Assembly: GCA_047602745.1 (NCBI GenBank)
Contig: JBLKOJ010000004.1
Coordinates: forward strand, 5,183-69,182
Source of the DNA: Candidatus Woesearchaeota archaeon
GTDB lineage: Archaea > Nanobdellota > Nanobdellia > Woesearchaeales > UBA583
DNA: 64,000 nt
Reading direction: 5' to 3'
The translations under genes were made by a program, and so were the position numbers. Of the stretch, positions 7,158-45,748 are shown one piece after another. How positions within the stretch are numbered: the stretch's first letter is position 1; each line of letters begins with the position of its first letter. Under the pieces are notes generated by a model. That model did no database searches and had not been told where the DNA came from. It was given only the letters and a program-made list of their open reading frames with translations.

Positions 7158-7479
7158 GTCATTTAAAATAAGAAAAATTTATAACTTCTCAAAATAATCT
7201 AACTAAGTATCAAATTTAAAACAAAAACTCAAATACAAATCAATACTAATTATGTGAAAGATTAATCCAAGTATGTAGTTTAGGAGAAAGTATTGATAGG
7301 TATCAATTAATTAAAGGAGAAATTATTAACAGATTATATCTCTTGTTCTCTTTAATATTTCAATTATTAAGTACTAAATCATCTAAATTAATCTTAGAGC
7401 TAAGAAAAAAGTTTAGGACAGTTTAATGGGAGAAAATATTACAATTAGTAAGAAAAATTGACAGTTAAGAATAAATTTT

Positions 7480-9263: not shown

Positions 9264-10004
9264 ATGATAGAAAAATTTATAGAATTCGAATTAAAAAATA
9301 ACAAATTATTTCCAGTATTTATTTATACATTTTTTATATCATCAACATTAGCATTTTTAGCAATTTATTTTAGTATTTCTATGTATCTACTATTTATATT
9401 AATTGCACTTGCTATTGGTTATCCTATTACAAAATTTATTGAGAAAAGTGAAGCAGAGGAATTTATTCACAAATTTAATGAAAAACAACTTCTAAAAAGA
9501 CATTCTCGTGAACTACTCGCTCTTTGGACAATCTTTGGAGCATTTGTTTTAGCCTTTTTTGTGATATTTTCATTTATGCCCTTAAACCAAGTAAATACGT
9601 TTCAAATAGGAATTAGTGGAATTGAAGGAGACGTTGCTTTTCTTCCAAATCTTCTCAATAATTTAGGGATATTTTTCTTAATCTTTATTTTATGTATGAT
9701 TAGTATTGCAGCAATTGTATTTGTTATTCAGTGGAGTGCTATGCTTGTTGCTCAAAGTTTAGTTGTTATTGGGGATTTAGTTCCTACATTAATAAGTGCG
9801 TTATTTATTCTCTCTTCTTCTTTATTACTTGTAGGAGGATATGTACTTGCAGGATTTGCAGGAGTACTATTATCTTTAAGATTTGATATACATGAGAGAA
9901 CATTTAAATCAAAGTATATGGGACAAATTCAAAAAGATGTATTTACATTATTAGGAGTTGGACTCTTACTTGTAGTAGTAGGAGTATTATTACAATTATT
10001 TTAA
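9264..10004 (+). CDS. Multi-pass membrane protein (possibly SpoIIM/DUF95-like)
   Basis: 246 aa with ~6 hydrophobic helices. Family assignment is only an impression. Confidence 0.45.
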   Translation: MIEKFIEFELKNNKLFPVFIYTFFISSTLAFLAIYFSISMYLLFILIALAIGYPITKFIEKSEAEEFIHKFNEKQLLKRHSRELLALWTIFGAFVLAFFVIFSFMPLNQVNTFQIGISGIEGDVAFLPNLLNNLGIFFLIFILCMISIAAIVFVIQWSAMLVAQSLVVIGDLVPTLISALFILSSSLLLVGGYVLAGFAGVLLSLRFDIHERTFKSKYMGQIQKDVFTLLGVGLLLVVVGVLLQLF

Positions 10005-12643
10005 AGAAAATTCTCAATTTTATTTTTATAATCATTTTTTGATTCTGGTCTTGAATAAAATGGAAATCCAACTAACTTAAAGTTTTCTCTCTCAATTTTT
10101 AAAATTGATTTATCAAAATCATCATCACTTAAATTTACTAAAAAATTCTCTTTCCATAAGTCAGACTGAGTTAAATGACTTCCTTTAATTTCAAAAAAAC
10201 ATTGGTATGTTATATTGGAATTAGATTTTTTCACAAAAAGTAAAAAGTCAGGTTGAAACCCATTACCAGTTTCAAAATCGTATACTTTATACACTTCTTC
10301 ATTTCTTAAAAAATAAATTTCATCAAATCCTTTTTGTTTTAGAATTGGAAGCATACTATCATTAAAAAATTTAGTAAACTCTTCTTCTAATTTATTTCCA
10401 TAAAACTTATCTAAAACATACCAATTTTTACTAACTAATTGCTCACTTACTCTTTGAAGCTCAATTTCCCTATCAATATCAATTGATTTATATTTTGGAG
10501 TTGAAAACTCATCTTTAATTTTTGAAAAAGTTAATTTTGTACCTTTATATGGATTATGATATTCTTTTATCTTTGATTCAAATTTTTTAAAAAAACTCTC
10601 AAAAGAATTATAAATTTGTTTAGTAGTTATCATGCTATTTGATGATATTGTAATATATTGTTCTCCGAAAATATCATCTTTAAAAATATCATCTATTGAT
10701 GAAATTTCCAAATATTCTTTTAAATTTTCAAACGTATAAAAATTTGAATTTAATTTTGAAAATACTTTTAATATTACGTGTTTATTATCTTTAAATTTAA
10801 AATCAAGAGAATTTAAACTTTCATCACTATCTGTATTTATTACTTGGTCACTTCCAAATATTTCCTTTTCCTCAGTTATCTGAGAATTAAATGTATATAT
10901 TCTATTAATTTCAGATAAAATTTCCATAATATTTTTCTTTCTCTTATTTGGATTTTCTATTCTTTGATTAATTGCAATTTTATAATTTTTATAAAATGAT
11001 GATTTTTTACGAATTTCATCTTTAATATGAAAACTTCTAGTAATAGTTTTAGGTGTGATTAAACCTTTATTTTTCAATTTATTTTTTAAGTCAGTAATAT
11101 AACTACTTTGATATGTACTATGAAAATGAAACTCCTCTAAAATTCTCAACTCATTTGATTTATCCATATCAAATTTACGCATATATGGGATAGTATCTTT
11201 GTATGAAAAAGGAAAATATCTTACTCCTCTTCCTATAAGTTGAACTTCTGAGACAGTTGATGAACCTGATTTACCTTTATTTGCACCACCTGTATTTTGT
11301 TCATTATATAATCTTACAATATCATATAAATTAAGTACATCCCACCCTTCTTCTAATTTTTTAACAGTAAATATAGCTCTAATAGGATTATATATTTCTT
11401 CAAGTGAATTTAATAATTCATCAATATCTTTTGTAGTTTCCTCTTGTGTTGTTTTAGTATTATCTTTTGAATTTGTAATTATACAATATTTCTCCTGAAA
11501 ATTATTTTGTAAAGAATTAATAATTTGTTGAATTGGTATTGATTTAGATTTAATATAATTTTTAATGGTATCTAATACAGAGATACTATTTAAATCGTCT
11601 AATTCCAAATTATCATCTTCAAAAGATTTCCCTATAAAGTCTAAATCACTAATACATAAATTTGAAATTAATTCTTTAAATTCTTAAAAATCTTTTCTTG
11701 ATTCTTCAATAGTTTTGCTTTTAAATAATATAACAGGTTTTAGATTAATATTATTGTTATTTGCAATTTGTTCTCTGTACCAATTAAATAATAAAGCAGT
11801 TAAAATTCTTGTCTTTTTATCAAAAGAAGCATATAACAAATTAACTTCTTTGGTAAATCCTCTATTTCTAAATTCTTTAAGGTCTAAATCTATAATTTTT
11901 TTATCACCATACTTTTCTTGAACAGACTGCTCATTTGGAACTGTTGCAGTAAATTCAAGTAATACATTTTCATTTTGAAATGAATTATGTAATATTTTTT
12001 TAATAATTAGATACTCCTAACTCTTTTCATCTTCTAATTCAGATTTATTAAGTTTTTTTGTAGAAGCATTTAAATGATGACACTCATCTGAAATCATTAC
12101 TACTTTTTGCTTTGTTAAATTTTCAAGTGTATTAGTATTCTCTCTTGGTTCTTCAATTGATTTTTGAAGTCCTTGAATTGTTGAAAATTGAATTTGAATA
12201 TCATCACTCATTTCATTAAATGAAGTTACTTGTTTAACTCTAACTTTTCTACCATTAATAAGAGTTGATTGTTTAAATAAATATTTTGAAGACGTTGAGT
12301 TACATAAATTATCAATTGTTTTTGAAACTAAATTTTTTTGATTTACAAAAAATAAAAAATTTCTATAACCTTTTTCATAATAGTATAATATTAAACACGC
12401 CATTAATAAAGTCTTTCCAGCACCAGTTGCTAAGTTAAAAAGAAGATGAGTAGGTATTTTTTTAATTTGTTGAATTGCAGGATTGAGTGTATCTTCATTA
12501 TAATATATAAAACGTTTTAATGTTTCTTCTTGATAGTCTCTTAGAGGGAATCGAATATTATTAATTATATTCTCAGAGATTTTCTGATTTTGTAGAAGTC
12601 CCATTATAGATACATTTTTTAATAATTCATTGAGATTATTCAT
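10001..12643 (-). pseudogene. res: Type III restriction enzyme Res subunit (SF2 DEAH helicase + PD-(D/E)xK nuclease), one 881-codon frame interrupted by two in-frame stops
   Basis: NLATGAGKT, DECHH, TAT (LLEFTATVPNE, own translation of the gap), QLIGRGVRY, QPDFLLFV...FEIKG. TAG at 12017-12019 and TAA at 11684-11686 are in frame (2643 nt = 881 codons). Confidence 0.8.
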
Positions 12644-18650: not shown

Positions 18651-20138
18651 CTAGTAAATGTAAGGAAAATCATCTTTTAAATGTTCAAGTGCATATTTAA
18701 TTTTAACCTCACTCTCACTATATAACTCAAACAATATATCTCCTTTTTGTATTTTGTCTCCTACTTTTTTTTTAATTATTAATCCCGCAGTTGGTGTAGT
18801 TGGAGCACCTACAATAAATGCAAGTTTTGAAATAGCCTTATTTTTAATTCCTTGTACAATTCCATCATGTCTGGCTATAATCTCCTCCCCATAAGTAGGA
18901 AATTCAGGTAACTGTTTATACCCTTGTGCTTTTCTAATTTGCTCAAACACTTCAAATCCTCTTCCACTTCTTAATAGTTTTAAAGCTAAATCATATCCTT
19001 TTCCTTTTACACACACTTTTGCAAGTTCAAAGATTTTACCTGTTAACACAAGTGCTTTCTCCATTAAATCTTTTGGAGCATCAGGAGAATTACTCAACAC
19101 TGCAAGCACATCTAATGCTTCAAAATACGGACCTACTCCAAAACCAATGGGTTGTGAACCATTAGTTATCTCAACACTTATGGTAAGTCCAATTGCTTCT
19201 CCTACTACTTCAAAACGTTTTTTTAATCGTTTAGCTTTACTTAAACTCTCAACTTTAGTTTGAGGACCATACGGAATATCAATTAACACATGTGTTGAAC
19301 CTGCAGATTTTTTTTTAGATAAAATACTTGCAATCATTTGATCTTCTGTATCAATATGAAGTGGGTGTTCTACTCTAATAATCATATCATCAGCAGGAGA
19401 TAAATCTAATGCACCACCCCACGCAAGACATCCTCCTACATTTTTTACAATATGATACATATCATCTAAATTTAGTTCCACATTTGCAAGCACCTCCATA
19501 GTATCAGCAGTCCCCGCAGGAGAAGTAATCGAACGTGAAGATGTTTTAGGAATTGTGAGTCCACCTGCAATAATTAACGGAATTGCAAGCATAGTTGTTC
19601 TATTATTTGGAACTCCTCCAATACAGTGCTTATCAACTATAATAGGTCTATTTACATTTGAAAATTCTAAATGTTTTCCACAATCAACCATTGCTTGAGT
19701 AAATGCAATCACTTCAGCGTCAGTGAGCTTATGTACTGAACATGCTAGGACAAAATATGTAGTTTCAACTTTACTATATGAATTATTTATAATATCTTCT
19801 AAAATCTCTAAAAAATGAGAATGTTCAAGTCTAATTTTATTTTCAAATTTAAGTCTCACATATTCAATAGATTTAGGTTTAGGAGCAGGATATATCATCA
19901 CTCCTCTTGAATATGCGCTTTGATTTAATTTAGCAGCTGCTTTTGAATTAAGCCCAATAGTATGAGAAGTATATGTTTTATCAACTTCAACATCACAAAT
20001 TAGTTTGGTATGCTTATCTTTTGTCTCAACTACTATTTTATCTCCTCCAACTACTTTAAGCATCTCAGCTACTTCTTGATTAATAATTGCGTGAAGTTCA
20101 TCTCCTGAATCAATATCTAATACTTTTACAGTAAACAT
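18651..20138 (-). CDS. deoA: AMP phosphorylase (archaeal thymidine phosphorylase family)
   Basis: 495 aa. Extra N-terminal domain MFTVKVLDIDSG..., DKHCIGGVPNNRTT, SSRSITSPAGTADTME blocks of the pyrimidine-nucleoside phosphorylase family. Confidence 0.8.
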   Translation of the reverse strand: MFTVKVLDIDSGDELHAIINQEVAEMLKVVGGDKIVVETKDKHTKLICDVEVDKTYTSHTIGLNSKAAAKLNQSAYSRGVMIYPAPKPKSIEYVRLKFENKIRLEHSHFLEILEDIINNSYSKVETTYFVLACSVHKLTDAEVIAFTQAMVDCGKHLEFSNVNRPIIVDKHCIGGVPNNRTTMLAIPLIIAGGLTIPKTSSRSITSPAGTADTMEVLANVELNLDDMYHIVKNVGGCLAWGGALDLSPADDMIIRVEHPLHIDTEDQMIASILSKKKSAGSTHVLIDIPYGPQTKVESLSKAKRLKKRFEVVGEAIGLTISVEITNGSQPIGFGVGPYFEALDVLAVLSNSPDAPKDLMEKALVLTGKIFELAKVCVKGKGYDLALKLLRSGRGFEVFEQIRKAQGYKQLPEFPTYGEEIIARHDGIVQGIKNKAISKLAFIVGAPTTPTAGLIIKKKVGDKIQKGDILFELYSESEVKIKYALEHLKDDFPYIY

Positions 20139-30758: not shown

Positions 30759-32009
30759 ATGAATACAAACTCCCCTAATTCTCTTAAATCTAAACTATTA
30801 CCAAATATCCCACAAAATCTTCATAGTTTAGTTCCAAGATCATTTGAAAGTATTGGTTCAATTGGGATTATAGAAATCCCTAAAGAACTTAAAGAATTTG
30901 AAATTATAATTGGAACAACTCTTCTTAAATCAAATCCTCAACTTCAAACTATTGTTAAAAAAGCAAGTTTTCATGAAGGAGAATTTCGAACACAACAATT
31001 TACATGTATTGTAGGAGTGAATAATACTATTACTCAATATAGAGAGAATGGAGTTCTCATTGAGCTTGATATTAATGAAGTCTATTTTTCAACAAAACTC
31101 TCAACTGAGAGAGAAATCATTACTAAAAGAGTAAAAGAAAACTCTAATGAATTAGTTTTATTTTCAGGAGCTGGTCCTTACTCGTTTGTTATTTCAAAAC
31201 AACAACCAAATATTTCAAGAATTACCTCAATTGAACTTAATCCTCAAGGTCATTTGTATGCTCTAAAAAATATTGAACATAATAAGAGTAATTTGAAAAA
31301 GTCCTTAATTTTTAAAAATATTCAACGAATTTGCAAAGAATACTCAATTCCTCTATATGAAAAAAAAATTCTAAAATCATTAAATGAATTAATATATAAT
31401 TTTAGTAATTGTGATGTAAATTCTTATGCTCCTCTTCTTAGTTTAAGTACATCTCCTTTTCCTAGCTCCAATTCTTTAAGTATTTCCTCAATATCTTATA
31501 AAGAGATTTTTGAACTTTCTAAATCAAATAACTATGGTAATACTGCTACTTATTATGTTGATTTAAATGAATTAAAAGAAGAAGAAAAAATAAAATACTT
31601 ATTTTTACTAATTTGTAATCCTAAGTATATCATTTTTAATATCAAAGTTGGCTCTTCAATATATTCAATTCAAACTTCTCTTGAAAAAAATTATTTTCTT
31701 CAATTACTCACCACTTCAAAATCAGTTGATGAAATCATAAAATATAATTCAATATATATGCCCCTTCCTAAAACAGCAATTGAATTTTTATCACACGCAT
31801 TGACATTATGCAGTAAAGGAGGAATTATTTATCTATATTGTTTTTTAAAAGAAGAAGAATTAGAAAATTACTCAAATGATACAATTAAAAAAATTTATGC
31901 CATTGGTGAAGAGGAGAATACTAATTTAAAAATTTTACAAATACGAAAAGTAGGACAATCTGCTCCAAGGATGTATAGGAGTTGCATTGAAATCCAAAAA
32001 TTAGACTGA
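30759..32009 (+). CDS. trm5: tRNA (guanine37-N1)-methyltransferase Trm5 family (Met-10+ like) with large internal insertions
   Basis: FESIGSIGIIEIP, YRENGVLIELDINEVYFSTKLSTER, LFSGAGPYS, IELNP, IYMPLPKTAIEFL, GGIIYLYCF. Confidence 0.6.
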   Translation: MNTNSPNSLKSKLLPNIPQNLHSLVPRSFESIGSIGIIEIPKELKEFEIIIGTTLLKSNPQLQTIVKKASFHEGEFRTQQFTCIVGVNNTITQYRENGVLIELDINEVYFSTKLSTEREIITKRVKENSNELVLFSGAGPYSFVISKQQPNISRITSIELNPQGHLYALKNIEHNKSNLKKSLIFKNIQRICKEYSIPLYEKKILKSLNELIYNFSNCDVNSYAPLLSLSTSPFPSSNSLSISSISYKEIFELSKSNNYGNTATYYVDLNELKEEEKIKYLFLLICNPKYIIFNIKVGSSIYSIQTSLEKNYFLQLLTTSKSVDEIIKYNSIYMPLPKTAIEFLSHALTLCSKGGIIYLYCFLKEEELENYSNDTIKKIYAIGEEENTNLKILQIRKVGQSAPRMYRSCIEIQKLD

Positions 32010-32033: not shown

Positions 32034-33125
32034 CTATGAAGTTGAGCTAAATCGTTGATAATTTTCTCTTAATTGGTTATGATAATTATTCTTCATATAA
32101 TTCACCCCATTGTACCTATACGCAACAGTTTCCCAGTTCGTATTTGAACTTTGTAATTCTCTAAGTAATGTTGAATCTGTGAGTATAAAATTTAACATGG
32201 CTCTTACTTGCTCTGCTTCACTTGACATTGCTTCATAAAACTCATCAATTGAAGAATATCCAGCTCTTTTATAATTAAATCCCATTACTTGGCCAACTCC
32301 AAAACTTGAAGAATATATAGCTCTTTGAGAATTATCATTATATGCACTTTTAAACGCTTGATAATTAGTTTCATGAGTAATAGTTGAAAATCCACTTTCT
32401 TCATCAATAGTACAAGGAACTCTAGGAGAAGATTGCAGTGGAAAATCTTCTCCCCTATTTGGATCATTATAAATATGACATTCAAATCTTACAGTGGGAT
32501 GATCATTACCTAAAAAAGGATTTCCTTTACTCTCAATTTCAACAAACGCTTGAAGTTTAGCAAGTTCAATATCGTGCTCTTTTGAGAGTTCAACTAACAT
32601 TTCATTAAATGAGTTATCACTTACTCGACTCTGTTCTTCCCTTATTTCTCCCTCTCCTATTATTCCACCAATAGAGTTTGGAGGTTTTTCCAATTCTTTA
32701 ATTTCTTCGAATGCTTTATCTTTTTGATCCAAATATGCATTCATAACACATGTACAATGTTCATCCTCAATACTTTTACATCTTGATTCTTTTTCTATAT
32801 ATAATTTAACATCTTGATACAATTCAAATTCTTGAGAGGAAGAATCACAACGATATCTTGAATTTTCAGGTAATCTATCGAATTCACTCTCTTCACAATA
32901 TACTTGCCTATATTGTTGAAATCCAACTGACCTACATTCTTGCTCAGCTCCTTCAACTTGAAGAACTTGATAAGAAGTAAATAATTGGCCTATTGGACCT
33001 GAAACTAATATTATTAAAACAATAAAAAATAAAAAAAATATAATAATTCTTTGAACCGGAAGTCCTCCCTGAGCTTTTTTAATATAGTTAAAAAAATTAT
33101 TCATTTTATCCTCTAATTGAATCAA
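32034..33125 (-). CDS. Membrane-anchored N-acetylmuramidase (DUF3380/endolysin-type murein hydrolase) with Cys-rich ectodomain
   Basis: TM IIIFFLFFIVLIILVSG. FVEIESKGNPF, VRFECHIY, SSFGVGQVMGFNYKRAGY, SEAEQVRAMLNFI, VAYRYNGVNYMKNNYHNQL. Confidence 0.7.
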   Translation of the reverse strand: MIQLEDKMNNFFNYIKKAQGGLPVQRIIIFFLFFIVLIILVSGPIGQLFTSYQVLQVEGAEQECRSVGFQQYRQVYCEESEFDRLPENSRYRCDSSSQEFELYQDVKLYIEKESRCKSIEDEHCTCVMNAYLDQKDKAFEEIKELEKPPNSIGGIIGEGEIREEQSRVSDNSFNEMLVELSKEHDIELAKLQAFVEIESKGNPFLGNDHPTVRFECHIYNDPNRGEDFPLQSSPRVPCTIDEESGFSTITHETNYQAFKSAYNDNSQRAIYSSSFGVGQVMGFNYKRAGYSSIDEFYEAMSSEAEQVRAMLNFILTDSTLLRELQSSNTNWETVAYRYNGVNYMKNNYHNQLRENYQRFSSTS

Positions 33126-34632
33126 CAGGAGTATAATATTTAGCAGTACTGTTTTTTGAAATTACTTCAAATTCTAAATCTTCAAAATGAATATCTCCTA
33201 AAATTCCTTTAGAGTTCACTAACTCAAATCCTAAAATTCTCGTATCTCCTTTTTCAAATCTTTTAAATTCCCAAATTAATTTATACTTATTTGAGCCTTT
33301 AAGTACTTTAGTAGGAGGAGTAATAGAAAAAGACTCATCCTTAACATGCAGATATGAGGGCATTTTAAATGTCACTCGTAATGTGTCAATTTCTTCACTT
33401 CTAATATTTTCAAAACCAACTTTAACTTTAAAACTTTTAATTCCTTCGTGCTTTACTTTTTTTATATGTTCAAAATCTATTTCAACAGCTAAAGGATTTT
33501 TATACTTAAAATATACTTTAATTAATGAAATGATTACTACAATAAATAGTAAAACTAATATAATCCCATATCTAATCTCATATGCAAACTCAGAAGTTTC
33601 ACTTGGCTCAACTTGAATTTGAAAAATATAATTGGTTCCATCTCTTACATAGGGAGTATTTGATACGAAAAAAAACCGTTCATACCATTGGAATTCTCTT
33701 TCAACTGTATGCAATGAGCGAGTGTTTCCAATATTTGTTACTTCAATCTTCTCTCCAATAGACCATATATTTGTGAATGTATTCTCATTAATTTCTAATC
33801 TTTCAAACTCTAAAATTTCAACTGAGTCTCTTAACTTCCATTGTTGACTTCTACCATATTCTCCCTCCAAACTTACTCTTACAATTCTGTCATAATTTCC
33901 GGGTTTAATTATCTCGGGAATTGAGAAACTAATATCTATTACATCTCTTAGATATGAAAAATTTAATTCTTTAGTTTCAAGTTCTACTTCTCCTATCTGC
34001 TTAGATATTTTAACTTTCGTAATTTGTTTACTTTCATCTAAGTTTTGAGCCGAAACTCTAAGAGAATTTTCAAATTCTGGAGACATCCTGGTTGTAGAAG
34101 GCTCAATTGAAAAATCGACAGGTAAATTCATAGGTGCATATACCTCAAGCCTATAGACAACTTCTAGTGTATCTTCATCTTCTAAAGGGTTTATAAAAAT
34201 TGGAAAATTAAAAACTCCAAAAAATTCATCATCTAGAACAAACTTGCTCAGTCCTTGACTATCAACAATTCTAGTATACCCCAGATTTTGGGGAACCAAC
34301 ACTAAAAATTTAATTTCTTTTCTTTCGTGGGGGTTTAATGTTATTTGAGGATTTTCAACTAAAACTTCCCAATTTAGAGTTGGATTAATTGAAATATTAA
34401 AATCTTGTTGAGCATCTAATTTATTAACAATAGTAAAAGAAAACTCGACTTCTTCTCTATTTGTTGAAATAATAGTGTTTATATTTTCTTGAGTAATAAA
34501 TGAATATGTATTTTGATTATATTGTTGAAAAGTTGAAAAACTTACTATTTGAGATAATAATATACCTAGTATAATTAATAATTGTAAAGATTTAATAATT
34601 AAATATTTCAATTTAAAAATCTGAGTTTTCAT
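33106..34632 (-). CDS. Large surface protein: signal peptide, beta-rich ectodomain, TM helix, ~130-aa C-terminal tail
   Basis: ORF 33106..34674, internal ATG 34632 gives MKTQIFKLKYLIIKSLQLLIILGILLSQIVSFS. TM YGIILVLLFIVVIISLIKVYF near residue 375. Confidence 0.5.
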   Translation of the reverse strand: MKTQIFKLKYLIIKSLQLLIILGILLSQIVSFSTFQQYNQNTYSFITQENINTIISTNREEVEFSFTIVNKLDAQQDFNISINPTLNWEVLVENPQITLNPHERKEIKFLVLVPQNLGYTRIVDSQGLSKFVLDDEFFGVFNFPIFINPLEDEDTLEVVYRLEVYAPMNLPVDFSIEPSTTRMSPEFENSLRVSAQNLDESKQITKVKISKQIGEVELETKELNFSYLRDVIDISFSIPEIIKPGNYDRIVRVSLEGEYGRSQQWKLRDSVEILEFERLEINENTFTNIWSIGEKIEVTNIGNTRSLHTVEREFQWYERFFFVSNTPYVRDGTNYIFQIQVEPSETSEFAYEIRYGIILVLLFIVVIISLIKVYFKYKNPLAVEIDFEHIKKVKHEGIKSFKVKVGFENIRSEEIDTLRVTFKMPSYLHVKDESFSITPPTKVLKGSNKYKLIWEFKRFEKGDTRILGFELVNSKGILGDIHFEDLEFEVISKNSTAKYYTPVDSIRG

Positions 34633-35596
34633 CTGATTCTTCCTCTTTTTTAGATTTAATTTTTTTAATTTCATCCTTTAATCCAAGTTTAGTGATTATC
34701 TCTTTATATCTATTTCTAATTGTAACTTCAGTAACACCACTTACTTCTGAGATATCTCTTTGAGTTCTTCTCTCTCCTTCTAAGAGTCCTGCAATATAGA
34801 GCGCAGCAGCAGCAATTCCTATAGGTCCTCTGCCAGAAGTTAAATCAAGAGTTAAAGCTTTAGATAAAATTTCAACCCCCCTTGATTGTGTCTCAGGACC
34901 GTAATTTAATACACTTGCAAATCTAGAGATATAATCAACAGGATTAGATGGTAAAATTTTAATTTTAAGTTCTCTTGTGATATATCTATATGACCTCCCA
35001 ATTTCTTTTTTATCAATTCCACTTGCCTCACTAATTTCATCGAGTGTCCTAGGGATATTTTGTCTTCTACACGCAGCATATACAACACCTGCGACTACAC
35101 TTTCAATTGAACGCCCTCTTACTAAATTTTTTTGAACTGCTTCAGTATAAATTTTTCCTGCCTCTTCTTCAATAGAAGTTGGTAAATTCAAATATGATGC
35201 GAGCCGTCTCAATTCTCCAAGAGCAATTTTTAAGTTCTTCTCCATTACAGTTGAGAGTCTTTTTTGCCACCTTTTTAATCTTTGAAGCTTATATCGTTGT
35301 TTTTTGTCTAATGAAAATGAATCACTCTCTGAACCTATAGATGTTCCAAGACCCATATCAAACTTAGTATATGTGGTTGGAGCTCCCGTTCTTCTCATCT
35401 CAGAACCTTCACTCTCTTCAAAATCCCTCCATTCTTTTCCTAGAGAAATATTTCTACCATCAATTACAAGACCACAAGATCTACAAATAATCTCTCCTTT
35501 GTCTTTATTATTATATAAATTACTACTTCCACATTCAGGACACTTTCTAACATTATCTCCTACCATTTTACGTAAATCTATGTACTTTATGACCAA
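34613..35596 (-). CDS. tfb: Transcription initiation factor B (TFB)
   Basis: Zn ribbon CPECGS...CRSCGLVI, B-finger region, two cyclin repeats (VAGVVYAACR..., GIAAAALYIAG...), 327 aa. Confidence 0.95.
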   Translation of the reverse strand: MVIKYIDLRKMVGDNVRKCPECGSSNLYNNKDKGEIICRSCGLVIDGRNISLGKEWRDFEESEGSEMRRTGAPTTYTKFDMGLGTSIGSESDSFSLDKKQRYKLQRLKRWQKRLSTVMEKNLKIALGELRRLASYLNLPTSIEEEAGKIYTEAVQKNLVRGRSIESVVAGVVYAACRRQNIPRTLDEISEASGIDKKEIGRSYRYITRELKIKILPSNPVDYISRFASVLNYGPETQSRGVEILSKALTLDLTSGRGPIGIAAAALYIAGLLEGERRTQRDISEVSGVTEVTIRNRYKEIITKLGLKDEIKKIKSKKEEESDENSDF

Positions 35597-35758: not shown

Positions 35759-37063
35759 ATGAAAATCATATTTCACGGTGCTGCACAAGAAGTTGGTAAA
35801 AGTTGTATTGAAATTATCTCCCGAGGAAGAAGATATTTATTAGACGCAGGAGTTAAATTTGTTCACGGAGGAGTTGAATATCCAAAATATTTAGATAAAG
35901 TAAGTGAGTTAGATGCAATTTTCCTCTCTCACGCCCATATGGATCATTGCGGAGCTCTTCCAATGCTTGAACACAAACGATTAAAATGCCCTATTTATTG
36001 TACTAAAATGACATGGGATATTGCAAATATTTTACTTGAAGACGGATTTCATTTAGAAAAATTACGTTCAATTCATCCTGCATATTCAGTAAGAGATGTA
36101 CGAGCAGTTAAAGATGATGTAAATTTAGTGAGATATTCTAAATGGTATGAAACTAAAGATAGAAAAGTTAAATTTCAATACATTAATGCAGGACATATCC
36201 CTGGAAGTGCATCTATTTTACTTGAAATAGAAGAAAAGCGAGTATTATATGCTGCTGACATTAATACTGAAGAAACACTTCTTATGCAACCAAGTTTACT
36301 TGAAAAATTAGAATTTGATAAGCCAATTGATGTGCTTATTACTGAAAATACCTATGGAAATAGATTACATCCTAATAAGACAGATGTGCAAGAAGGATTT
36401 ATAAAATCAGTTATGAGTGGAATTGAAGGAGAGGGGTCAGTATTACTTCCAGTGTTTGGAGTTGGACGTTCACAAGAAATCTTAATTCTACTAAGTAAAT
36501 TACCAAAAAACATCCCGATTTATTTAGATGGTTCTGCAAGAATTCTTACTAAATTTATCTATCAATCAAGTGATCCATTTATCAACAATAAAGATATTTT
36601 AGAAAATATGTTTAAACGAGTACATTTAGTAAAACATCCTAATGAAAGAGCAAAAATTGCAAAACAAAAAGGAGTCGTTATTCTCACAACTTCAGGAATG
36701 CTTCAAGGGGGTCCAAGTGTTGGATATGCTGAGATGATGATAAACGATAAAAATAATTTTATAATCTTAAGTGGATTTCAAGCCAATGGAACTAATGGAA
36801 GAAGTATTTTTGAAGATCATATATTTTATAATCATCACCAAAGGTTTAAAGTACACGCTCACGTGAGAAAGTTTGACTTTTCAGCTCATATTGGACAAGA
36901 TGGAATTCATAAAGTGATGAAAAATCTAAAAGCAAAATATATTCTTCTTCAACACGGTGATATAGATGCACTTGAGGCTGTAAAACAATGGGGAGATAGG
37001 CACAAAGACGAAGTTCCTTCAGATGTAATAATTCCTAGAATAGGGGAAGAGCTGGAGTTTTAA
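35759..37063 (+). CDS. Beta-CASP metallo-beta-lactamase RNase (aCPSF2-like, no KH domains)
   Basis: LSHAHMDHCGALP, NAGHIPGSA, later acidic/His beta-CASP motifs (DFSAH, LQHGD), 434 aa. Confidence 0.75.
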   Translation: MKIIFHGAAQEVGKSCIEIISRGRRYLLDAGVKFVHGGVEYPKYLDKVSELDAIFLSHAHMDHCGALPMLEHKRLKCPIYCTKMTWDIANILLEDGFHLEKLRSIHPAYSVRDVRAVKDDVNLVRYSKWYETKDRKVKFQYINAGHIPGSASILLEIEEKRVLYAADINTEETLLMQPSLLEKLEFDKPIDVLITENTYGNRLHPNKTDVQEGFIKSVMSGIEGEGSVLLPVFGVGRSQEILILLSKLPKNIPIYLDGSARILTKFIYQSSDPFINNKDILENMFKRVHLVKHPNERAKIAKQKGVVILTTSGMLQGGPSVGYAEMMINDKNNFIILSGFQANGTNGRSIFEDHIFYNHHQRFKVHAHVRKFDFSAHIGQDGIHKVMKNLKAKYILLQHGDIDALEAVKQWGDRHKDEVPSDVIIPRIGEELEF

Positions 37064-37068
37064 TTGTT

Positions 37069-37668
37069 TTAAAAATTCGTTACATATTTAACTGTGGGTT
37101 TTTTTGAAGATTTTGTTAAAAGTAATGGACTTTGATTATCAGGTATCATAATTATTTTTGGAAATGTATAATTTACTCTTTGAAATTCTGTTCTAAGTCC
37201 ATTTAATCTTTTTATAGTTGAGGTGAATGGAGTTATAATATGACTTATAGGAGTTCTAAAATCATCTAGATTCTTATTTCTACGACCTTTCAAAAAATCT
37301 AAAACTCTTTGATCATCATTTACTAAGTCTATATCTATGCAAAGAGTTTTATTGTTTGAATTTTGCATATAAGCTGGAGAGTACAGTTGATTTGACTTAT
37401 TTTCTATTAATTGAGTTCTTCTGCGACTTAACCCTATCATAGTAGAGCCTTCAATCCCATAAAGATAACTACGATTATTAATACCAAATTTGTCTAAAAA
37501 AGTATTTTGTACTGAATATTCTATTAAACTTGGGTGTATGTATGTATGAGCGTTAGTTACAGGTAACTTATTTGTTCTAAGTTGTTCTGTAGAAAATCCC
37601 CAACTTCTTAATCTATCTTTTAAATTATCTTTATGAATTTTTTGAAAATTAGAATTTCTTCTACTCAT
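37069..37668 (-). CDS. Hypothetical basic protein
   Basis: ORF only (199 aa). No motif recognised. Confidence 0.4.
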   Translation of the reverse strand: MSRRNSNFQKIHKDNLKDRLRSWGFSTEQLRTNKLPVTNAHTYIHPSLIEYSVQNTFLDKFGINNRSYLYGIEGSTMIGLSRRRTQLIENKSNQLYSPAYMQNSNNKTLCIDIDLVNDDQRVLDFLKGRRNKNLDDFRTPISHIITPFTSTIKRLNGLRTEFQRVNYTFPKIIMIPDNQSPLLLTKSSKKPTVKYVTNF

Positions 37669-37817
37669 TTAATCTTTTAACTCAATAGTAGTATTTAAAT
37701 TACTTTTAGATGTTATTCGTATTTCACTACATATGTTTTAAATATTTTATTAGTTGAAAGTTTATTTTTAAGTTTTAGTGAAATAAATTTAAAAAATATA
37801 TAGTGTTAATTTAAGGT

Positions 37818-38705
37818 ATGGTAATTAAAAAACACCAAGAAAAAACTACTAAAGATACTAAAAGCTCTCATAAAAATCATAAAAGAGAGCCCATTAGAAC
37901 TAGCTCTTCTTCAAATGCTAAAAAAACTGATACTCGCCTGAAAAGAACATCATCTAAAAAATCAATTAATCCTAGTCAAATTCAAGTATTAATTGGAGCA
38001 GCAGTTGTTGGATTATTAGTAATTATTTTAGTAATTGTAGTTGGTTTGGCATTTACATCAAACGGTAATGGAGAAGAAATTCATGAAGATATTAATATGC
38101 CCGAAGTAATTCCTGAGACTCCAATTACTTCAGAAGAAGATTTAGAAGTTGAAAATGATTTTGATCCTCTAACACCTATACTAAATATTAATGGAGAGGA
38201 AGTATTAGCTCAAGATGTAGCCGTTGTTCAAATGCAACTTCAACAACAAGGATTTGAAATTAATGAACAACAAGCACTTGAGCAAATAATTACAAATACA
38301 GTTTTACTTCAAGCAGTTCAAGAACAAAATTTTGTAATAACTAACGAAGAAGCGGAAGAGGAATTAATCCAACTTCTTTCAACCCAGGGATTCACTATAG
38401 ATGATTTAAAACTTGATTTGGAAGAACAAGGGGTTTCATATGAAGCAACTCTTGAGGATTTTAAAGAAAGAATTGCAGTAGATAGATTTTTAGAGCAAAA
38501 TATTGATATCAGTTCAGTTGAAGTAACACAAGAAGAAGTTGAAGAGTTTTATGCTATGTATTCTATGCAGATGGGAGAACAAACCCTGCCTTTTGAGGAG
38601 ATTGAACTTCAAATTGTGGCACAAATTGAACAAGAAAAAATTGGAGAACTTCAAAATCAATTTATCAATGTATTAGTAGAAGAAGCAGATATTGAATTTT
38701 ATTAA
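37818..38705 (+). CDS. Membrane-anchored acidic protein, SurA-N/PpiD-like chaperone domain (no PPIase domain seen)
   Basis: Basic N-tail, TM VLIGAAVVGLLVIILVIVVGLAF, then NINGEEVLAQDV...QIITNTVLLQAV resembling SurA N-terminal domains. Confidence 0.35.
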   Translation: MVIKKHQEKTTKDTKSSHKNHKREPIRTSSSSNAKKTDTRLKRTSSKKSINPSQIQVLIGAAVVGLLVIILVIVVGLAFTSNGNGEEIHEDINMPEVIPETPITSEEDLEVENDFDPLTPILNINGEEVLAQDVAVVQMQLQQQGFEINEQQALEQIITNTVLLQAVQEQNFVITNEEAEEELIQLLSTQGFTIDDLKLDLEEQGVSYEATLEDFKERIAVDRFLEQNIDISSVEVTQEEVEEFYAMYSMQMGEQTLPFEEIELQIVAQIEQEKIGELQNQFINVLVEEADIEFY

Positions 38706-41243: not shown

Positions 41244-43157
41244 ATGGACATTAGATACAAAATTGCAAAGCAGATTGTTTCTTTTACACAAAAAGAATAT
41301 GATGATTTATTCTCTTATGTACTTACTAATCAAAAAGGAGATTGCATTATACAATCTCTAGAAGATTCAAAATGCAAATCGTTTGGATTTTTTAAAAGAG
41401 ATAATGAAAAACACACATTAATTAAAATCATTGACTGGTTTGGAACAAAGCAATTCACAACCAAAAATATAGAGATTCAAGAATATTCAATTACTAAAGA
41501 ATTTTCTTCACCATATTATGAGAATGAAGATAGTGTTATTGGATTTGAAAAAATTACAATCTCTCCTAATGGGGGATTTATTTTTGAGACAAATGTTGAT
41601 TCTAATATAATTGTAGATTTAGATATTCGATATTTTTCTGACTTTTCTAAATTTGGAAAAGAATATAAAATATATCAGGAGGAGGGAATTTTATTTATTG
41701 AATTTATTAAAAAGAATGAAAATTCAAATGAAGAAGATTTAAAAGTTTATATTGGAATTAAGACTCAAAACCTAATTTTTAAAGAAATTCAACAGTGGAT
41801 TGAAAAAGAGTATTCATATGATGCTTTAAGAGGAATAGACTCAAAAGAATTTATATTTAGAGCACTTGAAATTGAAATTCAAAATGTTCATAAAAAAATT
41901 CATATAGGATATTCAACAACAAAAGAGGAAGTTTATGAACAACTTATCATAATGGATAATTTTGAACATATTATTGAAGAAGTTGAAAGAGGAATTGATG
42001 AAGAGAGTTTTGGAAAGACAATTTCTCAGACACCTCTTAGTATGCAAACTCAATTAGGTTATGATATTGCCAAAAGAAAAATTTTTGATTTTTTAGTTAG
42101 AGATTCAAAGTTAAATGCTCCTTCAATTATTGCGGGGTACCCTTGGTTTTATCAAGAATGGAGTAGGGATGAAGTTTTTTCCTTACGTGGATTCTTAGAG
42201 GTTGGAGAAACTAAACTAGTCCATAACAAATTAATTGAGTTTTGTAATTTAATAAATGAAAAAGGTGATTTTCCCAGATTACTTCATCAAAAAGGGTCAT
42301 TAAATAGTATTGATGCTCCTCTCCTACTTGCTAAAAGAATTGAAGATTATATTTTTTATGTCGATAAAAAAGAAGGACTTGTAGATCTCCTTCAAGATGG
42401 TACTATTGAATTGTTTTATCAAAGTCTACTTAAAATATTTAATGGAGTTATGAAACACAGATGGAACTCTGAAAAAGAACTTCTTGAAATTGAAAAAGGA
42501 GATTGGTGGAGAGATACTATTGATTGGGTTAAATCACCTCTTGCACTTCAAGTGTCTATGTTAAATACTATCTCAACATTAGCGATTTTATCTAAAATAC
42601 TTGAATACACAACTAAATGTGAAGAATTTTTAGATTTTGAAAATGATTTTAAACTTCATATTAAAGAACTTTATTTCAAGAATAATATATTAGTTGATGA
42701 ACCCGATACACTAACTATTACTTGTGATGTGTTTTTAGCCTACTATCATTATCCAAGTCTATGTTCTCAAGAGGAATGGAAAATTATTTTTAGAAAAACC
42801 CTCTCACATCTATACTTGAGCTGGGGAGGAATTTCATCTCTTTCAAAACATGACTCTAGATTCCAACAAAACTACACTGGTGGAAATGATATTAGCTATC
42901 ACCAAGGAGATTCTTGGTATTTTATGAATGCAATTTGTACAATGTGTTTGTACCATTGTGACAAAGATGAATTTAAACAAGAAATTACTACAATTTCAAG
43001 TTCTCTAACTAAACAGCTATTATTTAAAGGAGCGTTTGGACATATTGCAGAAGTAAGTTCAGCAAGTAAACAAGAAACTAGAGGATGTATAGCTCAAACT
43101 TGGTCACTAGCGTTATATATAGAAATGATGCATTTAATTTATGGAATTGAAAAATAA
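41244..43157 (+). CDS. Glycogen debranching enzyme, archaeal type (amylo-alpha-1,6-glucosidase, GDE_C)
   Basis: IAGYPWFYQEWSRDEVFSLRGFL and SYHQGDSWYFMN blocks, 637 aa. Confidence 0.75.
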   Translation: MDIRYKIAKQIVSFTQKEYDDLFSYVLTNQKGDCIIQSLEDSKCKSFGFFKRDNEKHTLIKIIDWFGTKQFTTKNIEIQEYSITKEFSSPYYENEDSVIGFEKITISPNGGFIFETNVDSNIIVDLDIRYFSDFSKFGKEYKIYQEEGILFIEFIKKNENSNEEDLKVYIGIKTQNLIFKEIQQWIEKEYSYDALRGIDSKEFIFRALEIEIQNVHKKIHIGYSTTKEEVYEQLIIMDNFEHIIEEVERGIDEESFGKTISQTPLSMQTQLGYDIAKRKIFDFLVRDSKLNAPSIIAGYPWFYQEWSRDEVFSLRGFLEVGETKLVHNKLIEFCNLINEKGDFPRLLHQKGSLNSIDAPLLLAKRIEDYIFYVDKKEGLVDLLQDGTIELFYQSLLKIFNGVMKHRWNSEKELLEIEKGDWWRDTIDWVKSPLALQVSMLNTISTLAILSKILEYTTKCEEFLDFENDFKLHIKELYFKNNILVDEPDTLTITCDVFLAYYHYPSLCSQEEWKIIFRKTLSHLYLSWGGISSLSKHDSRFQQNYTGGNDISYHQGDSWYFMNAICTMCLYHCDKDEFKQEITTISSSLTKQLLFKGAFGHIAEVSSASKQETRGCIAQTWSLALYIEMMHLIYGIEK

Positions 43158-43792: not shown

Positions 43793-45748
43793 TTATTTTC
43801 TCTTAAACATTTTCTCAAAATCTTTAAAAGAATATTCAATAATAATTGGTCTTCCATGTGGACAATTGAAAGGTTCTTCTAATCGCTTTAATTTTGCAAT
43901 TAGTTCATGCATTTGTGAGATAGTAAGTTCATCTCCTGCCCTAATTGAGGACTTACAGGAGAGAATTGCTAAATGTTCTATAATATGAGAGTGTATGTAG
44001 TCTTTAGAATTTTTAATGAATTCAAAAGTTGATGAAAGTGTAAATTGTTCTAATAAGCTTTTGATAATACTTATTTCAAGGCATTTTCCTTTCAAATCAA
44101 ATGGAAGGGCTCTTACAATGAGTTCTTTTTCTTTTAATATTTCAATATCAAAACCTAACATTTCTAAAATATCTTGAATTTCGCTAAATATCAGCTCTTC
44201 TTCTTTAGATATTTGCAATAATAAAGGTTTTAATAATTGCTGATTTTGGGTTGAACGGAACTCCTCATTTGTGTAATATTGTTTAAACAGTTCAAAATAA
44301 AATTTCTCTTCTACTACGTGTTGGTCTATAATAAGTAGCCCTTGTTTAACTTCAACTAAAATAAAGGTTTTATGTAGTTGACCTAGAATTCGGTATTGGT
44401 CGAAATATTCTTGAAGTGGACTATGGGGGATTTCTTTTAAATTTGTGATTTCTTTTAATGATATAAGAGGAGTTTTAACTGTTGTAGAGGGTATTTTTTC
44501 TTGTTTAGAATTTAAAATGTTCTCATGTGGATAAGAAGATTGCCTATATTCTTCTTGTAATTTACCTTTTTGAGAAGAAAATTCTTTTTGAAAATCTTTT
44601 GAGAAATAAGATTTTTCCTGACATGAGTCTTTTTGATAGCTTTTATTTTGAGTATTACTATTTTGATTATCAAAAGAATTTATAGTAGAGTTTATACTGT
44701 TAAGTTGGGAATTCTTAAAAGTATCGATTTTCTGATTTTCAGGAATTTTTCCTTTTTTAGTTAGTATATAAGATTGAAACATTTTTTGAATTCCTTTACT
44801 AATTTGTTCAAATACAACTGCTTCTTGCTCAAATTTAATTTCTTGCTTTGAAGGGTGAATATTTACATCTATAAGCTCGGGGTCTATAATGATATTTAAT
44901 ACATACATTGGAAATCTTCCTAAATGAATATTTGTTCCAATTCCTTGAAATACGGCTTTATGAATTAATTGTGACTCAATGGGTCTTGAATTTACATACA
45001 CGTATTCATGAACTCTAGTTGAATAATTTATATCGTTTGGATTTACCATAAAACCTGAAATAATAAAAAAAGAAGAACTAATTTCGATAGGAAATAATTC
45101 AATACTTGAATTTATATCTAATACCTCTTTTGAATTTTCAATAAGATTTTTATGAGGAGTTTTTTTGAATATATTTTTAGAATTATTGTATAAAGAGATT
45201 TGTAAATAAGGTTGTATTAAACTTATCTGCTTTATAATTTTTATAATTTCTTTGAGCTCATATTGAGGATTTTTAAGATATTTTTTTCGAGCAGGAACAT
45301 TGTAAAATAATTCCTCAATAATAATTGTAGTTCCATTATTATGGGCTACTTTTCTAATATCTAATTGAGGAGTTGAAATTTGATATGCATATTCCTGCGT
45401 TTTTGGTTTAGACTGAAGTGTTACTTTTGCAACTGAAAATATAGAAGCTAATGCTTCTCCTCTAAATCCCATTGTTGAAATATTGTATAGGTCATCAAAT
45501 GAGGAGATTTTTGAAGTTGCATGTCTTTTTGGTGCTAAATGCAAATCTTCTTTTAAAATTCCAATTCCATTATCTTTTACAACTATTTTTTCAATACCAC
45601 TTTGAATAAGTTCAATTTCAATATTTGTTGCATGAGCATCAAGTGCATTTTCTACAAGTTCTTTGATTAACGAAGCAGGGTTCTGAATTACTTCTCCAGC
45701 AGCTATTTGGTTACAAAGTTCTTGAGATAATTTTTTAATTCTATTCAT
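43793..45748 (-). CDS. mutL: DNA mismatch repair protein MutL
   Basis: GHKL ATPase blocks IAAGEVI, ELVENALDA, VKDNGIGI, GFRGEAL. C-terminal dimerisation/endonuclease region, 651 aa. Confidence 0.93.
   Translation of the reverse strand: MNRIKKLSQELCNQIAAGEVIQNPASLIKELVENALDAHATNIEIELIQSGIEKIVVKDNGIGILKEDLHLAPKRHATSKISSFDDLYNISTMGFRGEALASIFSVAKVTLQSKPKTQEYAYQISTPQLDIRKVAHNNGTTIIIEELFYNVPARKKYLKNPQYELKEIIKIIKQISLIQPYLQISLYNNSKNIFKKTPHKNLIENSKEVLDINSSIELFPIEISSSFFIISGFMVNPNDINYSTRVHEYVYVNSRPIESQLIHKAVFQGIGTNIHLGRFPMYVLNIIIDPELIDVNIHPSKQEIKFEQEAVVFEQISKGIQKMFQSYILTKKGKIPENQKIDTFKNSQLNSINSTINSFDNQNSNTQNKSYQKDSCQEKSYFSKDFQKEFSSQKGKLQEEYRQSSYPHENILNSKQEKIPSTTVKTPLISLKEITNLKEIPHSPLQEYFDQYRILGQLHKTFILVEVKQGLLIIDQHVVEEKFYFELFKQYYTNEEFRSTQNQQLLKPLLLQISKEEELIFSEIQDILEMLGFDIEILKEKELIVRALPFDLKGKCLEISIIKSLLEQFTLSSTFEFIKNSKDYIHSHIIEHLAILSCKSSIRAGDELTISQMHELIAKLKRLEEPFNCPHGRPIIIEYSFKDFEKMFKRK

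Follow-up and report, generated by a model that had tools for sequence, protein, structure and literature searches.

A membrane-anchored muramidase at a polymorphic murein-hydrolase locus of Woesearchaeota, possibly directed at bacterial cell walls

A tiny archaeon, probably a symbiont and taken to make no murein, carries, among its housekeeping genes, what looks like a bacterial-type N-acetylmuramidase; what could such an enzyme be for? The gene lies in a 64,000-nucleotide stretch of DNA from Candidatus Woesearchaeota archaeon (GenBank assembly GCA_047602745.1, contig JBLKOJ010000004.1, positions 5,183 to 69,182), called the window below and numbered from its first letter. An original prediction, made from the letters alone, had described three minus-strand open reading frames (ORFs) here, and all three were found where it placed them: tfb, encoding transcription factor B (34613–35596), a 522-aa ORF (33106–34674) and a 363-aa ORF (32034–33125). 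The last is referred to as S3, its position at this and related loci (numbered L002 to L035) as slot 3 and the family of the 522-aa ORF as P522. We consider it fairly probable that S3 is a polymorphic, surface-anchored murein hydrolase which would open the walls of bacterial hosts or prey from outside, at contact. The steps that lead to this view, and the alternatives to it, are given below.

The enzymatic part of S3 was characterized by profile, structure and active-site comparisons. The blocks on which the muramidase assignment had been based (FVEIESKGNPF, VRFECHIY, SSFGVGQVMGFNYKRAGY, SEAEQVRAMLNFI and VAYRYNGVNYMKNNYHNQL) all occur in the 363-aa ORF, and the Pfam Muramidase match expected over residues ~170–360 was obtained with PF11860 over residues 187–359 (32049–32567, minus strand; E = 5.6e-41; 141.2 bits for a cut-off of 22.3; profile positions 1–174 of 175). 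PHROG endolysin families match at 1e-45 and 9e-39, and among sequences of the Protein Data Bank (PDB) the matches are AP3gp15 (5NM7, 8.6e-20), Pae87 (7Q4S/7Q4T, 2e-18) and LysT84 (7RUM, 1.2e-15). The same three enzymes were returned by Foldseek (E ~1e-10; everything else E > 2) when queried with an AlphaFold model of the domain (predicted local distance difference test, pLDDT, ~90); the alignment to Pae87 (E = 3.5e-10; target TM-score 0.76–0.78) reveals the two-lobe, lysozyme-like fold. The glutamate of the EIES block, E198 (32532–32534), aligns with AP3gp15 Glu101 and Pae87 Glu29, as anticipated for the catalytic Glu. E215 (32481–32483), H217 (32475–32477) and Y348 (32082–32084) align with Pae87 Glu46, His48 and Tyr174, E215 also with AP3gp15 Glu118, and both E215 and Y348 are invariant in the alignment of archaeal muramidases. 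In the characterized enzymes, the AP3gp15 E101A mutation abolishes 99.4% of activity, Pae87 Glu46 is catalytic by mutagenesis and the roles of Glu29, His48 and Tyr174 are experimentally supported (PMC5674055, PMC8972805). Profile, structure and catalytic glutamate all agree with the proposed identity: S3 is an intact member of the PF11860 family with all four described active-site residues, and it is predicted to hydrolyse the bond between N-acetylmuramic acid (MurNAc) and N-acetylglucosamine (GlcNAc).

This assignment is already present in the NCBI annotation, where a protein 100% identical to S3 is named 'N-acetylmuramidase domain-containing protein [Candidatus Woesearchaeota archaeon]'. No recognised cell-wall-binding domain was found in S3, for which Pfam gives the Muramidase domain only. 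A Cys directly follows the catalytic-base Glu ([RK]FEC) in all 27 distinct anchor-linked archaeal muramidase domains, and 23 of the 27 have a second Cys 8–40 residues further on; the three solved phage enzymes have FERH in place of [RK]FEC. In the window the pair is C216 (32478–32480) and C238 (32412–32414), both in the catalytic domain. It may correspond to an extracellular disulfide and mark the clade, within a comparison that covers the three solved phage enzymes only.

How is this domain held by the cell? Upstream of it, S3 consists of a basic N-terminal tail, probably cytoplasmic, that ends in ...KKAQGGLPVQR (aa 1–26; computed coordinates 33048–33125), a transmembrane (TM) signal-anchor helix (aa 27–43, IIIFFLFFIVLIILVSG; 32997–33047), a Cys-rich stalk (aa 44–135; 32721–32996) and a linker (aa 136–186; 32568–32720). 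The TM segment, which is also helical in the model, has a mean Kyte-Doolittle value of 3.34 over 17 residues, with 4 K/R before it and none in the next 20 residues; the basic N-terminus and single TM helix first described are thereby borne out, and the pattern fits an N-in/C-out signal anchor that would place the enzyme outside. The cysteines had been counted as seven, but there are eight, six in the stalk (64, 77, 93, 116, 124 and 126) and two in the catalytic domain (216 and 238). The stalk belongs to no known family and was poorly modelled by AlphaFold (pLDDT < 50 with a 7-sequence alignment); its Cys and Trp columns are conserved in all three stalk alignments (A1, A3 and A5).

The proteins encoded in slot 3 have in common a short basic tail, a strongly hydrophobic helix and a ~100-aa Cys-rich stalk, and among the 63 family members tabulated the motif KK[GA]-x-E-L-x-x-x-[KR] or MELxxRK recurs before the helix. 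The KK[GA]-x-EL form suggested a prepilin-type (class III) signal peptide and display on a pilus, a possibility ruled out by the many members that begin with MELxxRK and have in-frame stops just upstream.

The order tfb, P522, slot-3 gene and convergent trm5 recurs in ~30 loci. It was first seen in L002, whose muramidase is 37% identical to S3, then in L004–L007, and subsequently in 14 loci from GTDB species genomes (all metagenome-assembled genomes, MAGs, of Nanoarchaeota/Woesearchaeota, with the complete chromosomes CP060218.1 and OZ242164.1 among them), in 9 metagenome loci and in two (L025 and L026) of three contexts reached independently through the anchor, the third being L024. Every locus with enough flank shows tfb-P522-slot 3, and trm5 is convergent beside slot 3 in all but two. 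P522 lies directly upstream of slot 3 in every locus, its stop being separated from the slot-3 start by −4 to +81 nt (mostly <15 nt). The trm5/tyw2 gene of the window (30759–32009, plus strand; Pfam TRM5-TYW2_MTfase and TYW2_N_2) ends 24 nt from the S3 stop.

Some of the contigs with this locus are in MAGs labelled otherwise: 'uncultured Methanosarcinales archaeon' (L009, L015 and L017) and 'Bdellovibrionales bacterium' (L019). These labels probably reflect mis-binning or mislabelling; that of L019 could instead hint at physical co-occurrence. In L032, a 334-aa ORF (6581–7585, plus strand) follows slot 3 in place of trm5; its N-terminus resembles a prepilin-type signal peptide (MMRFKKDKTGVSPVVATSLLLVIAVVG) and its C-terminal part has a fibrinogen-like 'DGGGWIL' motif.

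The slot is constant in position and anchor and variable in its enzyme end, so that the muramidase is one of many interchangeable murein-hydrolase domains on a common anchor, a point absent from the original prediction. When 1.84 billion representatives were searched exhaustively by HMMER with the A3 profile of the anchor (E <= 1e-3), 40 representative clusters were obtained, all 40 matched at the N-terminus; the A1 profile gave no match at E <= 0.01 in a word-indexed set of 5.8 billion proteins. Pfam analysis of the 40 anchor-bearing representatives gave 30 family matches, of which 2 are to DUF2272, an uncharacterised family, and the other 28 to families of murein hydrolases: Muramidase 18 (too high a share, since muramidase-bearing members were used to build the profile), SLT 4, Amidase_2 2, DUF2272 2, and Glucosaminidase, M23, M15_3 and VgrG3-like 1 each. 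Eight Pfam families were thus found on one anchor, and double-domain proteins (DUF2272+SLT, SLT+M23) also occur.

Locus by locus, a PF11860 muramidase occupies the slot in 12 cases (the window, L002, L008, L012, L013, L018, L019, L022, L026, L030, L033 and L035). Enzyme ends of the SLT or phage baseplate-hub lysozyme type are found in L004, L010, L011, L020 and L025 (Pfam SLT at 6e-5 and 6e-4; PHROG 196, which comprises phage baseplate-hub lysozymes, matches those of L004 and L020 at ~1e-30), and L032 looks SLT-like on a motif recognized by eye only. Pfam identifies Peptidase_M23 in L006, L021 and L025 and Peptidase_M15_3 in L007 and L016; Amidase_2 is found in L015 and L031 (1.2e-21). A VgrG3-like C-terminal domain was assigned, weakly, to L014 (1.3e-3) and, by phmmer to the L014 domain, to L027, L029 and L034 (best match within the anchor family 2.8e-6). 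Two slots contain no catalytic domain, L005 (168 aa, 6530–7036) and L017 (173 aa, 7482–8003); in both, the anchor-and-stalk gene directly abuts trm5 and is not obviously truncated by assembly.

Three alleles have a further C-terminal domain of ~170 aa behind the muramidase or SLT-like one: P0002 (aa ~400–578), L008 (7535–9265) and L004 (6521–8251; aa ~400–576 in both). It contains the motif 'GSRRHDFGNAADIY...NCNMHLDIVG' and, by eye only, resembles an H-x-D...H metallopeptidase of LAS/M15 type; no match to it was found in Pfam, PDB or PHROG.

Comparison of closely related loci showed how the enzyme ends differ. S3 and P0002, the slot-3 protein of L022, are 89% identical in the stalk and 41.5% identical in the muramidase domain. 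At the nucleotide level (blastn), the window and the L022 contig are 84% identical over the 3′ end of P522 and the anchor (33195–32635) and 84.5% identical over trm5 (32003–30700). Nothing is alignable in between (32634–32004), where L022 has 1,260 nt encoding a divergent muramidase and the extra domain; the breakpoint is at ~32635 (aa ~164), in the linker of S3. In a second pair, from a single metagenome (Ga0114931), L034 and L035 are 95.3% identical over the 3′ end of P522 and the first ~50 slot-3 codons and 96.7% identical after the slot-3 stop, and between these conserved flanks L034 has the VgrG3-like domain and L035 a muramidase. L023 matches the window at 85% identity in tfb and P522, yet the N-terminus of its slot-3 protein is unrelated. 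The slot has therefore undergone allelic replacement with sharp breakpoints at the anchor/enzyme junction, that is, at the boundary between constant and variable parts and between close strains (window/L022 and L034/L035), as in polymorphic toxin loci. In a neighbour-joining tree of P522, muramidase, SLT and M23 alleles are each distributed over non-sister lineages.

The original prediction had suggested lateral acquisition. A recent event is unlikely, as the best of the 788 phage records with S3 homologues is 32–33% identical and the archaeal [RK]FEC signature is present in 27 of 27 domains; recent transfer from a sequenced phage is ruled out by the identity value. The stalk and domain identities, the flank breakpoints, the scattered tree, the [RK]FEC signature and the low phage identity together suggest that the muramidase was acquired long ago and then passed around within the lineage, rather than captured repeatedly from sequenced phages.

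The constant partner of this variable slot is P522, a two-TM membrane protein of ~500 aa, whose homologues (more than 30, 480–517 aa) have no Pfam domain. The architecture originally described for it, a signal peptide, beta-rich ectodomain, TM helix and tail, is in agreement with the AlphaFold model (mean pLDDT 83), which has an N-terminal helix, three beta-sandwich domains (51–367), a TM helix (370–391) and a C-terminal beta-sandwich domain (395–515). In the window, the immunoglobulin (Ig)-like ectodomain (aa 46–369) corresponds to 33568–34539 and the domain after the second TM helix (aa 392–522), probably cytoplasmic, to 33109–33501, both on the minus strand. Identities of the C-terminal domain to four successively more distant relatives are 86, 78, 77 and 58%, those of the ectodomain to the same relatives 62, 45, 40 and 26%, and most of the invariant columns of the P522 alignment (A2) are in the C-terminal domain (e.g. 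GFEN, YKLIWEFKRFEKGD and GILGD). An exposed outside that evolves fast and an inside under constraint would be expected to give this pattern. The C-terminal domain has no known family or specific fold match, and for P522 as a whole Pfam gave a sub-threshold match to the Ig-like FixG_C only. A specific fold for P522 was not supported either: Foldseek searches of PDB and BFVD gave generic multi-beta-sandwich matches (TM-score <= 0.22) to integrins, complement MG domains, ciliary ASH proteins, DUF11 and tail proteins.

The pairing of the slot-3 gene with a large surface protein, first noted in the window, is consistent across lineages, and its invariable adjacency and tight spacing could indicate functional coupling of P522 and S3. 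The argument is weak because tfb and trm5, whose functions plainly have nothing to do with slot 3, show the same synteny. Nothing indicates that tfb is part of a functional module, as had been proposed; it is a syntenic neighbour, like trm5 on the other side.

What polymer would such a set of enzymes act upon? Only in murein do a muramidase, a lytic transglycosylase, a MurNAc-L-Ala amidase and the D-amino-acid-dependent M15 and M23 peptidases all find a substrate; MurNAc and D-amino acids are both absent from pseudomurein. No wall-synthesis genes were seen among the ORFs scanned in the 64-kb window, and the literature searched contained no report that Woesearchaeota make murein. Because murein fits all the domain types and no wall synthesis by the host was found, we favour an outward, tethered hydrolase of bacterial walls. 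In the mechanism that we propose, the signal-anchor helix and a disulfide-rich stalk of ~130 aa would hold an active N-acetylmuramidase on the outer face of the archaeal membrane; its substrate would be the peptidoglycan of bacteria touched by the archaeon, since the latter is taken to make none. S3 would be one allele of a hypervariable slot in a Woesearchaeota-type lineage (class Nanoarchaeia), in which the anchor is kept while homologous recombination in the conserved flanks exchanges the catalytic domain at the C-terminus. These alleles would cut different bonds, in the glycan (muramidase, SLT/baseplate-type lysozyme, VgrG3-like enzyme, glucosaminidase), at the MurNAc-L-Ala amide (Amidase_2) or in the peptide (M15, M23). 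Like phage virion-associated lysins and the murein effectors of type VI secretion systems (T6SS), which include Tae, Tge and VgrG3, the enzyme would locally open the wall of a bacterial host or prey at contact, and allele turnover would track bacterial wall chemotypes or inhibitors. No immunity gene was found downstream of S3, where the 24-nt gap to trm5 leaves no room for one, and trm5 is also close at other loci; none would be needed, because the producer is without the target murein.

A more elaborate version, to which we would commit ourselves only tentatively, is that P522 and S3 form a core-genome, contact-dependent wall-breaching device for parasitising bacteria. The Ig-like ectodomain of P522 would bind or scaffold the interface and its cytoplasmic domain would couple it to the cell interior, while the hydrolase in the slot would set the openable wall chemotypes and hence the hosts. 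If this were so, an arms race between archaeon and bacterium could be read from the turnover of alleles within populations, which would also serve as a genomic marker from which to predict the bacterial hosts of uncultured DPANN.

A number of points weigh against the proposal of contact-dependent wall breaching by S3. Both the enzymatic activity and the bacterial partner are predicted from sequence. On its stalk of ~130 aa, S3 must reach through the archaeon's own surface layer and, with Gram-negative targets, through an outer membrane as well, and the locus showed no machinery dedicated to secretion or delivery. The anchor might be cleaved to release a soluble enzyme. The anchor-only slots of L005 and L017 mean that the anchor may have a murein-independent role, and at least 10 of the 40 anchor-bearing representatives lack a recognised domain (a lower bound, because some proteins match two families). 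In L024, a member of the anchor family adjoins secY and not trm5. The P522 tree was obtained by neighbour-joining, without support values. The negative result for wall synthesis covers 64 kb, and murein synthesis could be encoded elsewhere in the genome. Finally, coupling with P522 is argued from adjacency and spacing, and in synteny tfb and trm5 are its equals. The L024 protein itself (112–2211; 699 aa, DUF2272 + SLT), on a contig that ends upstream and from the same sample as L022 (ERZ27301260), represents either a second copy elsewhere in a genome or a rearranged locus.

These points leave room for other explanations, of which scavenging and pure antagonism are live rivals. The anchored hydrolases might digest murein debris (necromass) from which the archaeon would import amino sugars and D/L-amino acids, with no living partner attacked. 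The reduced, salvage-oriented genome, with an AMP-phosphorylase-like protein and a GDE_C protein encoded in the window, would suit such a life, as would a tether that keeps products near the cell, and the literature casts Woesearchaeota as recyclers of cell components. However, scavenging predicts several complementary hydrolases per genome, whereas the slot holds one of many mutually exclusive alleles; rapid replacement between strains that are almost identical is more suggestive of conflict or of changes in host range, some alleles are wall-piercing domains of virion or T6SS type, and no genes for muropeptide uptake or catabolism were seen beside the locus. We give this explanation a small chance. 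Slightly less probable still is a bacteriocin-like antibacterial weapon, possibly released by cleavage of the anchor, that would kill neighbours without symbiosis or feeding. In its favour, archaeal peptidoglycan hydrolases such as the zoocin-like ones of halophiles are bactericidal in vitro (PMC12352652), weapon loci are typically polymorphic and an immunity gene is absent here. The published archaeal weapons are, however, patchily distributed, plasmid-biased and equipped with cell-wall-binding domains, whereas the slot is a fixed chromosomal site occupied in every recovered locus of the lineage, and its products have a strongly hydrophobic anchor and no recognised binding domain. Tethering, enzyme ends of virion and T6SS type and alleles that are mutually exclusive rather than complementary are the reasons why contact-dependent wall breaching is favoured.

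In an endogenous role, P522 and S3 would reshape the archaeon's own envelope, for instance at division, by acting on a polymer such as a glycoprotein coat or a layer resembling murein or pseudomurein. Such a role is unlikely. It would explain the core-genome position beside tfb, and the occupied slot and strict synteny across deep divergence within the lineage, the highly conserved cytoplasmic domain of P522 and the anchor-only alleles L005 and L017 could all be cited in its favour. But a single bond specificity would then be expected, and instead glycosidases, an amidase and D-amino-acid-dependent peptidases interchange, even within a population; the established chemistry of pseudomurein and the failure to find wall synthesis in the window or in the literature also speak against it. 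An artefact or mobile element, that is, the endolysin of a prophage or archaeal virus or a mis-binned bacterial contig, was suggested by the PHROG endolysin matches, the 788 phage records with homologues and the wrong taxonomic labels of some related contigs. It is excluded by synteny and composition: one contig carries archaeal EF-1alpha, S10, RpoN, trm5, tfb and beta-CASP RNase genes around S3, the same locus is present on two complete archaeal chromosomes, and the GC content of the S3 catalytic segment is 0.32 (window 0.27; tfb 0.33; neighbours 0.27–0.33). There are no phage genes (holin, spanin, virion) adjoining S3, and the setting is not that of a phage lysis cassette but an archaeal gene order shared by ~30 loci; the best phage identity of 32–33% points the same way. 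The anchor is also far more hydrophobic than a signal-arrest-release (SAR) signal. The archaeal host of the original prediction is hence borne out.

Where does this leave S3 among known systems? S3 has the same fold and the same four active-site residues as the PF11860 phage muramidases AP3gp15, Pae87, LysT84 and Salmonella phage 10 Gp110, at an identity of 26–33%, but it is archaeal and chromosomal rather than phage-borne. It has a TM anchor and a Cys-rich stalk where the phage enzymes have a PG_binding_1 domain or no extra domain, and in its clade the catalytic-base Glu is followed by Cys ([RK]FEC), usually with a second Cys, unlike the FERH of the solved phage enzymes. Phage endolysins act from within the lysing host, whereas S3 presumably acts from outside its target. 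In the latter respect it is closer to virion-associated lysins (baseplate hub and tail lysozymes), which digest murein locally from outside and to which the L004 and L020 alleles are homologous; these lysins are parts of a virion, and S3 is predicted to be tethered to a cellular membrane.

Association with bacteria had been presented as unusual for such an archaeon, an opinion that is outdated, as murein-degrading enzymes and possible bacterial hosts have already been proposed for Woesearchaeota and Pacearchaeota (PMC8204110, PMC9723730, PMC10936187). The GH23 murein-lytic-transglycosylase proteins described from them are large and extracellular, up to 3,000 aa (Castelle 2021, fam00969; Vigneron 2022). 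S3 has in common with these the lineage, the presumed murein substrate and the presumed bacterial association or predation; it differs in being a 363-aa PF11860 protein without SLT, whereas fam00969 consists of giant SLT/GH23 proteins, although other slot-3 alleles do carry SLT. These accounts of GH23 proteins (Castelle 2021; Vigneron 2022) are silent on a fixed slot with interchangeable catalytic domains, on a common anchor and on any link with P522, tfb and trm5. That peptidoglycan hydrolases of archaea can kill bacteria has been demonstrated (PMC12352652). The survey of Strock 2025 required at least one catalytic domain together with one recognised cell-wall-binding domain, and the genes found were patchy and plasmid-biased; S3 falls outside it by design, because it has no such binding domain. 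Like S3, the GH25 lysozyme of Aciduliprofundum (Metcalf 2014) and the zoocin-like M23 'Woldo' of Halogranum (Strock 2025) are archaeal murein hydrolases that would be useless on the producer itself, and domain shuffling is common to slot 3 and the published archaeal peptidoglycan hydrolases. Those enzymes are soluble or secreted, with cell-wall-binding domains, a bias to plasmids or small contigs and recent transfer (Metcalf 2014; Strock 2025), whereas S3 is membrane-anchored, devoid of a binding domain and part of a conserved core-genome locus.

The locus as a whole bears closer resemblance to something else. In polymorphic toxin systems, which Zhang and Aravind reportedly set out in 2012, a constant N-terminal trafficking part is said to be combined with interchangeable C-terminal toxic domains through recombination at the junction. 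Slot 3 is similar in its constant anchor, swapped ends, recombination at the junction, within-population alleles and some VgrG3-type ends. It is dissimilar in that it has no immunity gene, orphan cassettes or recognised secretion apparatus and has housekeeping genes on both sides. A fixed core-genome slot with a common anchor and swapped murein hydrolases was not described in the searchable literature, which does not extend to subscription-only papers, nor were the anchor/enzyme breakpoints, the within-population alleles or the invariable linkage to an Ig-repeat protein. Taken alone, S3 belongs to a known enzyme family, is annotated as such and comes from a lineage for which enzymes of this kind have been discussed; the new aspect is the architecture of the locus, which resembles a polymorphic toxin locus without an immunity gene and is directly testable.

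Through this locus, the open question whether any DPANN live on bacteria, which has rested on scattered annotations, becomes testable. The enzymes form a small, easily expressed family at an easily found fixed position (tfb/P522 to trm5), and metagenomes allow slot-3 alleles to be typed and correlated with the bacteria that occur alongside them. The 2025 finding of bactericidal archaeal hydrolases would be extended to chromosomal, membrane-anchored enzymes without a cell-wall-binding domain, and polymorphic-toxin-like domain swapping to a case where an immunity gene is unneeded. The anchor module and P522 are, in addition, two uncharacterised families with a clear context for study.

As to gene models, the overlaps between the three ORFs that had been reported hold for the longest ORFs and disappear with the NCBI starts, with which the genes abut by 1 nt: P522 then begins at TTG 34609–34611 (501 aa, P0008) and the muramidase at ATG 33102–33104 (356 aa, P0001). 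Under either set of starts, the packing of tfb, P522 and S3 is operon-like. The tfb gene (Pfam TFIIB and Zn_Ribbon_TF; NCBIfam PRK00423, 5.8e-115), which forms the conserved left flank, is probably the promoter-proximal gene of a transcript that would include P522 and S3.

Synteny with L004 extends past tfb (window 35759–38705), with a beta-CASP RNase, an unknown ORF of ~190 aa (37069–37668) and a SurA_N-like membrane protein (37818–38705) in the same order. Other large ORFs of the window encode MutS, MutL, the AMP-phosphorylase-like protein, RNase J and a type III restriction-modification methylase; a 535-aa ORF (10001–11608, minus strand) has no Pfam match at E <= 0.001. The AMP/pyrimidine-nucleoside-phosphorylase-like protein (18651–20138, minus strand) and an amylo-alpha-1,6-glucosidase (GDE_C; 41244–43157, plus strand) both fit a salvage or scavenging lifestyle. 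MutS is full-length and of bacterial type (domains I–V; 271–2799, plus strand), and its presence together with MutL (43793–45748, minus strand) in a small archaeal genome fits the reported 'hybrid' bacterial gene content of DPANN.

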